Source: Escherichia coli (GTDB taxonomy: Bacteria > Pseudomonadota > Gammaproteobacteria > Enterobacterales > Enterobacteriaceae). From it: DNA of 64,000 bases. The notes beneath the pieces are model-generated. The model saw only the letters and a list, made by a program, of their open reading frames with translations. It was not told the origin of the DNA and searched no databases. This document shows positions 26,979 to 28,079 of the stretch, in pieces (positions within the stretch are counted from its first letter, which is position 1; every line of letters starts with the position of its first letter). Both the position numbers and the translations under genes were made by a program. The DNA lies in the NCBI RefSeq assembly GCF_046105845.1, contig NZ_CP151004.1, one strand, 5' to 3'.

Positions 26979-28079
26979 ATGAAATTAAAAATAGTTGCGG
27001 TGGTTGTAACTGGTTTGTTAGCTGCGAACGTAGCACACGCTGCCGAAGTCTATAACAAGGATGGTAATAAACTCGACCTTTATGGCAAGGTTACCGCTCT
27101 ACGTTATTTTACTGATGATAAGCGTGACGATGGTGATAAAACTTATGCCCGTCTCGGCTTTAAAGGAGAAACGCAAATCAATGATCAAATGATTGGTTTT
27201 GGTCACTGGGAATATGATTTTAAAGGCTATAACGATGAAGCCAACGGCTCGCGCGGTAACAAGACCCGTCTGGCCTATGCAGGTTTAAAAATTAGTGAAT
27301 TTGGCTCTCTGGACTATGGTCGTAACTACGGTGTCGGCTATGACATTGGTTCATGGACCGATATGTTGCCAGAATTTGGTGGCGATACCTGGAGTCAGAA
27401 AGATGTCTTCATGACATACCGTACTACCGGTGTGGCAACCTATCGCAACTACGATTTCTTCGGCTTAATTGAAGGTCTGAACTTTGCCGCGCAATATCAA
27501 GGCAAAAATGAACGCACTGACAATGGTCATCTTTATGGTGCTGACTACACGCGTGCCAATGGTGACGGTTTCGGTATCTCCTCAACTTATGTTTATGATG
27601 GCTTTGGTATCGGTGCGGTGTATACCAAATCCGATCGGACAAATGCGCAGGAAAGAGCCGCTGCTAATCCTCTCAATGCCTCCGGTAAGAATGCAGAACT
27701 GTGGGCTACAGGTATAAAATATGATGCCAACAACATCTACTTTGCAGCTAATTACGCTGAAACATTAAACATGACCACCTATGGCGATGGTTATATCTCT
27801 AACAAAGCACAAAGTTTTGAAGTAGTGGCACAATATCAATTCGACTTCGGCTTGCGCCCATCACTCGCTTACCTGAAATCGAAAGGCAGAGATCTGGGCC
27901 GCTACGGCGACCAGGACATGATTGAGTATATCGACGTTGGTGCGACGTATTTCTTCAACAAAAATATGTCGACCTATGTTGATTATAAAATCAACCTGAT
28001 TGATGAAAGCGACTTTACCCGTGCCGTAGATATTCGCACCGATAACATCGTCGCAACGGGCATTACCTATCAGTTCTAA
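26979..28079 (+). CDS. General porin of the OmpC/OmpF/NmpC(OmpD) family, intact, 366 aa
   Basis: Track ORF; signal peptide [21 protein letters not shown] then [16 protein letters not shown]...; C-terminal ...GITYQF; AT-rich upstream region typical of porin promoters. Confidence 0.9.

Follow-up and report, generated by a model that had tools for sequence, protein, structure and literature searches.

The 366-codon open reading frame described here is intact and chromosomal, and it very probably encodes the E. coli orthologue of OmpD, a general porin of Salmonella. We hold with considerable confidence that this assignment goes together with a standard porin mechanism, with an ancestral state of the gene that was lost at least twice in the species, and with a role as a minor or conditionally expressed porin. 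The gene lies in a stretch of 64,000 nt from Escherichia coli (RefSeq assembly GCF_046105845.1, contig NZ_CP151004.1), referred to as the window in the following. The coordinates of the gene, its control elements and its neighbours are listed in Table 1.

Table 1. Features of the porin locus. Positions are those of the window; a dot marks features to which no strand is assigned.
Feature	Position	Strand	Evidence or remark
yddG, aromatic amino acid exporter	25839..26720	+	NCBIfam YddG equivalog, 469 bits; conserved upstream anchor
CRP-like candidate TTCGACTTCGATCACA	26818..26833	+	right half TCACA kept in Salmonella and C. koseri; left half 3/5
Putative promoter	26870..26906	+	homology to Salmonella ompD: TTGTTT (26870), TAAAAA (26894), start-equivalent G (26906)
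Shine-Dalgarno AAGGA, 9 nt before ATG	26965..26969	+	sequence; also kept in Salmonella and C. koseri
Porin CDS, 366 codons plus stop	26979..28079	+	ORF listing, family profiles, PDB matches, identity
Sec signal peptide (predicted), residues 1-21	26979..27041	+	alignment with OmpC/OmpF/PhoE precursors; PDB mature chains start at residue 22
Loop L3 constriction motif PEFGGD, residues 131-136	27369..27386	+	alignment; invariant columns
C-terminal beta-signal ...ITYQF, ends at Phe366	28065..28076 (TYQF)	+	alignment
Intrinsic terminator-like hairpin (28091..28114) plus T-run, 12 nt after stop	28091..28124	+	9-bp stem, 6 G-C pairs
Segment missing from K-12, 1,532 bp	27263..28794	.	BLAST against K-12, junction mapping
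LRR1	28243..29508	+	leucine-rich-repeat ORF, context only
Second segment missing from K-12, 642 bp	29127..29768	.	bounded by the 11-bp direct repeat ATTGATTTATC
LRR2, EspR1-like	29550..30827	+	leucine-rich-repeat ORF, context only

In the ORF listing of the window the gene corresponds exactly to one ATG-started frame of 366 amino acids with zero internal stops. Pfam Porin_1 (PF00267) covers residues 27-366 over profile positions 1-337 of 337 with E=2e-134 and 448.6 bits, the curated cutoff being 23.7 bits, and the solved structures of OmpK36, OmpC, OmpK37, OmpF and PhoE in the PDB match residues 22-366 with E values of ~1e-127 to 1e-100. The match is far above chance and the protein is a member of the general bacterial porin family of the OmpC/OmpF/PhoE type. 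Cleavage of the signal peptide is predicted between AHA and AEVYNKDG, with an A-x-A site that aligns with the sites of OmpC, OmpF and PhoE before AE[VI]YNKDG. The residues forming the eyelet of OmpF are kept in the alignment in six out of six cases (K16 as K37, R42 as R58, R82 as R97, R132 as R148, D113 as D128 and E117 as E132), the aromatic girdle tyrosines are present as well, and Y364, Q365 and F366 are invariant among 24 homologues.

The fold was modelled with AF2 on the basis of 24 homologues (pLDDT 72.7, pTM 0.72). The model superimposes on the structures of OmpC, OmpK36 and OmpF with TM scores of 0.86-0.92 and an rmsd of 2.3-2.9 Å, and by this superposition the protein is predicted to adopt the 16-stranded beta-barrel fold. 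L3 (residues 131-143) and several of the outer loops are modelled with low confidence, and the signal-peptide region appears as a helix (4-15) of low pLDDT. Among the PDB matches to the window porin there is no structure of the OmpD/NmpC clade. The preliminary description of this stretch had called the gene a full-length 366-aa porin with a signal peptide and a C-terminal aromatic residue, which agrees with the ORF, the Porin_1 match, the cleavage-site alignment and Phe366. It had also proposed to look for an internal frameshift or stop; the window allele and four further alleles have neither.

These features suggest how the protein would work. The precursor would be exported by Sec with removal of the 21-residue signal peptide, and the C-terminal ...YQF beta-signal would lead to BAM-dependent insertion into the membrane. 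The mature porin of ~345 residues would form a 16-stranded beta-barrel and, by analogy with OmpC and OmpF, a trimer. Loop L3 with its PEFGGD motif would fold into the lumen such that D128/E132 lie opposite the basic cluster K37/R58/R97/R148, and the resulting eyelet would allow passive diffusion of small hydrophilic solutes. Expression would depend on an own promoter and 5' UTR, homologous to those of Salmonella ompD, on an own ribosome-binding site and on an own terminator. This mechanism draws on knowledge of the porin family and on conserved residues, from which we infer the trimer, conductance, promoter use and expression level.

The relationship to OmpD was evaluated by identity, gene order and phylogeny. 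The window porin is 78% identical to a chromosomal porin of C. koseri, 72% to Salmonella 'porin OmpD' over the full length, and 67% to the NmpC/Lc prophage porins (67.5% to the NmpC fragment of K-12), as opposed to 60% for K-12 OmpC, 59% for OmpN, 57% for OmpF and 56% for PhoE. The contigs carrying Salmonella ompD and the C. koseri gene share the gene order fdnI-fdnH-fdnG on the minus strand, yddG and the porin gene on the plus strand, three other genes, narU and narZ. In a neighbour-joining tree the window porin falls within an OmpD/NmpC supergroup, separate from OmpC, OmpN, PhoE and OmpF. The bootstrap values for this supergroup are moderate, with 59-89% on the relevant splits and 13-47% within the group; NmpC/Lc proteins form a tight cluster of their own, while the relationships within the supergroup are poorly supported. 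Since the bootstrap support is only moderate, orthology is argued mainly from synteny, which, together with the protein comparison, identifies the window porin as the positional orthologue of Salmonella ompD.

Salmonella enterica OmpD (STM1572-type; P0034/P0036) resembles the window porin in its chromosomal position, in a homologous promoter/5' UTR, in an L3 of the type DTW[T/S]Q.DVFMT and in a lysine at the position of OmpF K80. The two proteins diverge chiefly in their external loops L4-L8, where indels occur as well. The loci differ downstream, where the window has two leucine-rich-repeat (LRR) genes and Salmonella has GFA-smvA-smvR. The assignment to the NmpC/OmpD type in the preliminary description is hence borne out by the identities, the gene order and the alignable promoter/5' UTR region. 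The alignment with OmpD, NmpC and OmpC/OmpF that it had asked for places the protein closer to OmpD and excludes a misplaced OmpC or OmpF.

The RefSeq/PGAP annotation nevertheless reads 'ompC: porin OmpC'. This name is explained by the NCBIfam 'porin OmpC' subfamily HMM, which narrowly passes with 495.3 bits (cutoff 484), and it is misleading. OmpC, OmpK36 and OmpF (2J1N, 6RD3, 1OPF) do share the fold, the eyelet residues, PEFGGD and the C-terminal Phe with the window porin, but they differ in locus and regulation and are at 57-60% identity. The real ompC adjoins micF/rcsD and not yddG, and the position of OmpF K80 is occupied by Lys in the window porin as in OmpD, NmpC, OmpF and PhoE, whereas OmpC and OmpN have Trp. 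Moreover the OmpF and PhoE equivalog cutoffs are both missed. That the gene is OmpC as labelled, or a misplaced OmpF, was rejected on locus and identity and has practically no probability left. In some sources the protein is called 'outer membrane porin protein LC', which, along with the 67% identity to NmpC/Lc, would fit a prophage-borne lysogenic-conversion porin of that type. NmpC (DLP12) and Lc (phage PA-2) belong to the same supergroup and have a similar L3; they differ in the signal peptide and in their location within prophages, beside Q and the lysis genes. The true nmpC is a DLP12 gene with quuD on one side and the lysis genes on the other, and its protein clusters with Lc apart from the window porin. 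The flanks of the window gene, in contrast, are free of phage genes and consist of yddG and LRR/narU in a core chromosome collinear with K-12. A prophage origin was rejected, as the lambdoid context of Q and lysis genes is missing, and is extremely improbable.

A specialised, PhoE-like anion-selective porin instead of a general one was also considered. The codon bias is similarly weak as in phoE (see below), and L3 contains an extra Lys (SQKD, residue 141) which is absent from the Salmonella, C. koseri and NmpC proteins. Against this, the selectivity residue K125 of PhoE, located before the R132 equivalent, is Tyr147 in the window porin, the identity to PhoE is the 56% given above, and the PhoE equivalog is matched with 457.8 bits where the cutoff is 599. 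This option was rejected on the equivalog score and the lack of Lys125, and we consider it very improbable.

The state of the locus in K-12 was determined by BLAST. MG1655 has the order narZ-narU-yddJ(pseudo)-yddK-yddL-yddG-fdnGHI and is collinear with the window except for two gaps, which are the missing segments in Table 1. The larger one starts in the porin gene, of which the last two-thirds are missing, and extends through the intergenic region into LRR1, which lacks its first 552 bp; the junction shows merely a short, imperfect microhomology (CGG..AAGA). K-12 yddL (b1472) has 291 bp and 96 codons. Residues 1-93 of YddL are 100% identical to the window porin, the upstream region and the neighbour yddG are the same, and codons 94-96 are derived from the LRR1 gene across the deletion junction. 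yddL is the 5' stump of the porin gene and the window represents the undeleted state. The statement in the preliminary description that K-12 keeps only an N-terminal remnant of ~96 codons, yddL, is confirmed by the length of b1472, its identity and the mapped deletion.

The smaller gap fuses LRR1 to LRR2, giving rise to yddK, and yddJ corresponds to the 3' end of LRR2, encoding its C-terminus. The exact 11-bp direct repeat at the ends of this gap fits a repeat-mediated deletion. The repeat (ATTGATTTATC) encodes an IDLS motif found in both LRR paralogues, and in K-12 yddK, which is a chimera, LRR1 residues 185-295 are joined to LRR2 residues 74-298.

The distribution of these variants was surveyed in 5,426 complete E. 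coli genomes. The segment missing from K-12 is present in 1,118 of them (~20%; 1,099 at ≥80% coverage), including O157:H7, O145:H28 and EAEC 042. The K-12-type deletion junction is found in 3,138 genomes (58%), e.g. K-12, J53 and O111:H8, and BL21 has the same yddL stump as K-12. In another 1,118 of the 5,426 (21%), e.g. Nissle 1917 and SK1144, yddG and narU are joined almost directly and the porin gene is absent together with both LRR genes; the spacer between yddG and narU in SK1144 is ~270 bp long (6021..6294 of the SK1144 locus). A few genomes, e.g. THO-008, have other truncations. At least 1000 public contigs carry exactly this porin sequence. The porin gene has thus undergone at least two losses, and carriage of it goes with lineage. 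We propose that the intact gene is ancestral, the losses being a partial deletion (K-12, BL21, O111-type) and a complete yddG-narU deletion (Nissle 1917-type).

Upstream of yddG, fdnG lies on the minus strand and is listed as a 195-aa ORF (25020..25607) ending at the selenocysteine UGA. A SECIS_3 element (Rfam, 84 bits) is located in fdnG at 24967..25025 (-), just downstream of the in-frame UGA. Downstream, the porin gene is followed by the two paralogous LRR ORFs, narU and narZ. LRR1 is an intact ORF of 421 aa and shares ~30% identity with the EspR1-like gene beside it. By tblastn, 118UI, Z1323HEC0399 and ET350 carry it over its whole length with 93-96% amino-acid identity, and O157:H7 F8952 has it in two pieces. 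LRR1 is probably an under-annotated gene, as RefSeq has only a 288-bp 'partial hypothetical protein' at that spot. LRR2 is the orthologue of the PGAP 'T3SS effector leucine-rich repeat protein EspR1', has 33% G+C and shows weak NCBIfam similarity to SlrP; the gene named EspR1 carries a frameshift in O157:H7 F8952, and ET350 and the window have it intact.

The signals for expression were deduced from conservation. The ~180 bp 5' of the start codon can be aligned among E. coli, Salmonella and C. koseri, and the conserved blocks comprise the Shine-Dalgarno sequence, the region of the Salmonella transcription start and a GATCACA motif. In Salmonella, ompD transcription starts at -69 (PMC3333887). 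The promoter predicted for the window gene would give a 5' UTR of ~73 nt. The CRP-like candidate further upstream has one good half-site, is centred at about -80.5 from the predicted transcription start and is too weak to be claimed as a binding site. The terminator-like hairpin behind the stop codon suggests that the gene is monocistronic. An Rfam scan of the whole window returned no known cis-regulatory RNA at the porin gene, the sole match being the fdnG SECIS.

Salmonella ompD is repressed by the sRNAs RybB, MicC, SdsR and InvR. The repression sites are located early in the coding sequence, and their positions were taken from PMC3333887. The seeds of K-12 MicC, RybB and SdsR were duplexed against the region -80..+120 of the window gene, Salmonella ompD, the C. 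koseri gene and nmpC. RNAduplex energies for the window gene lie approximately within 1 SD of shuffled controls, and the published MicC site of Salmonella was likewise not recovered by this approach. By hand, the RybB seed forms 8 bp with the window gene, 2 of them G-U. The Salmonella MicC site (codons 23-26) is broken at 2 positions in the window gene.

Selection was evaluated on five alleles, namely the window and those of O157:H7 F8952, O145:H28 12E115, Z1323HEC0399 and ET350. All are intact genes of 366 codons, and amino acids vary at only 5 positions. In the nine allele pairs with measurable dS (dS ≤0.09) dN/dS is 0.02-0.10. Low ratios and intact alleles thus indicate purifying selection where the porin survives.

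Codon usage was computed as Fop with the standard optimal codons of E. coli. The window porin has a value of 0.58, compared with 0.92 for K-12 ompC, 0.81 for ompF, 0.68 for ompN and 0.55 for phoE; the orthologues reach 0.87 in C. koseri and 0.83 in Salmonella ompD. Such a weak bias points to a porin that is minor or expressed only under certain conditions, unlike the major porin of Salmonella. The intergenic region between yddG and the porin gene has 258 bp and 27% G+C, the porin gene itself 44%. Judged from its composition, this AT-rich upstream region could bring about silencing under standard conditions.

The same data allow for a gene that is intact yet effectively silent, 'quiescent' like ompN or nmpC in laboratory strains, without a role in permeability and heading for loss. 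Besides a Fop close to phoE and below ompN and the AT-rich upstream region, its deletion in ~79% of the complete genomes by at least two events speaks for it, and the searchable literature yielded no expression or functional study of the E. coli gene. Yet the dN/dS values of the five alleles would be unexpected for a never expressed gene, and the promoter/5' UTR homologue, the Shine-Dalgarno sequence and the terminator are all kept. A silent gene is, in our view, somewhat unlikely. For the reading as a minor or conditional OmpD orthologue, we counted the disrupted MicC target, the AT-rich upstream region, the moderate bootstrap support and the low AF2 confidence in L3 as points against it.

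The gene itself is already known: it is an ordinary accessory porin, reported in 2010 and common in E. coli. The window porin is WP_000768393.1 and is identical to the protein at the same locus of EAEC 042. The genome paper on that strain described Ec042-1601 as an 'apparently functional ompD' (Chaudhuri et al. 2010, PMC2808357), and the sequence in its supplementary alignment is the same as that of the window porin (PMC2808357). Protein and locus are thus identical, while the strain is a different one, with ~98% DNA identity across the region. The EAEC 042 region (1..4600 of the EAEC 042 locus) beyond yddH contains a T6SS tip (tssI/VgrG), an M35 peptidase and ISAs1 remnants; its sole match in the window is a stretch of 212 bp (~42554..42765, 96.7%, a remnant of an ISAs1-family transposase), so the strains differ there. 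The same paper took K-12 nmpC (DLP12) as the pseudogene counterpart of Ec042-1601 (PMC2808357), and nmpC has been equated with ompD repeatedly (PMC2808357, PMC3333887, PMC7371104, PMC10321414). The positional remnant of Salmonella ompD in K-12 is, however, yddL rather than DLP12 nmpC.

The 90% sequence cluster containing the window porin has a 603-aa Roseburia LepA/EF4 protein as its representative; porins and LepA are mixed in it by a clustering artefact, and for this reason an identical 366-aa entry was missing from the results of the homology search.

One complete E. coli genome in five, EHEC O157:H7 and EAEC 042 among them, encodes an extra general porin that is conserved under selection. 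Carrier genomes have a second gene labelled 'ompC', which can confuse screens for porin loss in resistance genomics. It is conceivable, although rather doubtful, that in the ~20% of carriers (EAEC 042, O157:H7, O145:H28) the protein acts as a conditionally induced third general porin that alters antibiotic entry, sensitivity to phages or colicins, or gut persistence, for instance by backing up the loss of OmpC/OmpF, and that the K-12-type and Nissle-type deletions were selected and not neutral. The overall importance is modest and lies mainly in annotation and in the biology of accessory porins. By analogy with Salmonella OmpD, the porin could be relevant for permeability, as a phage receptor or as a vaccine antigen.
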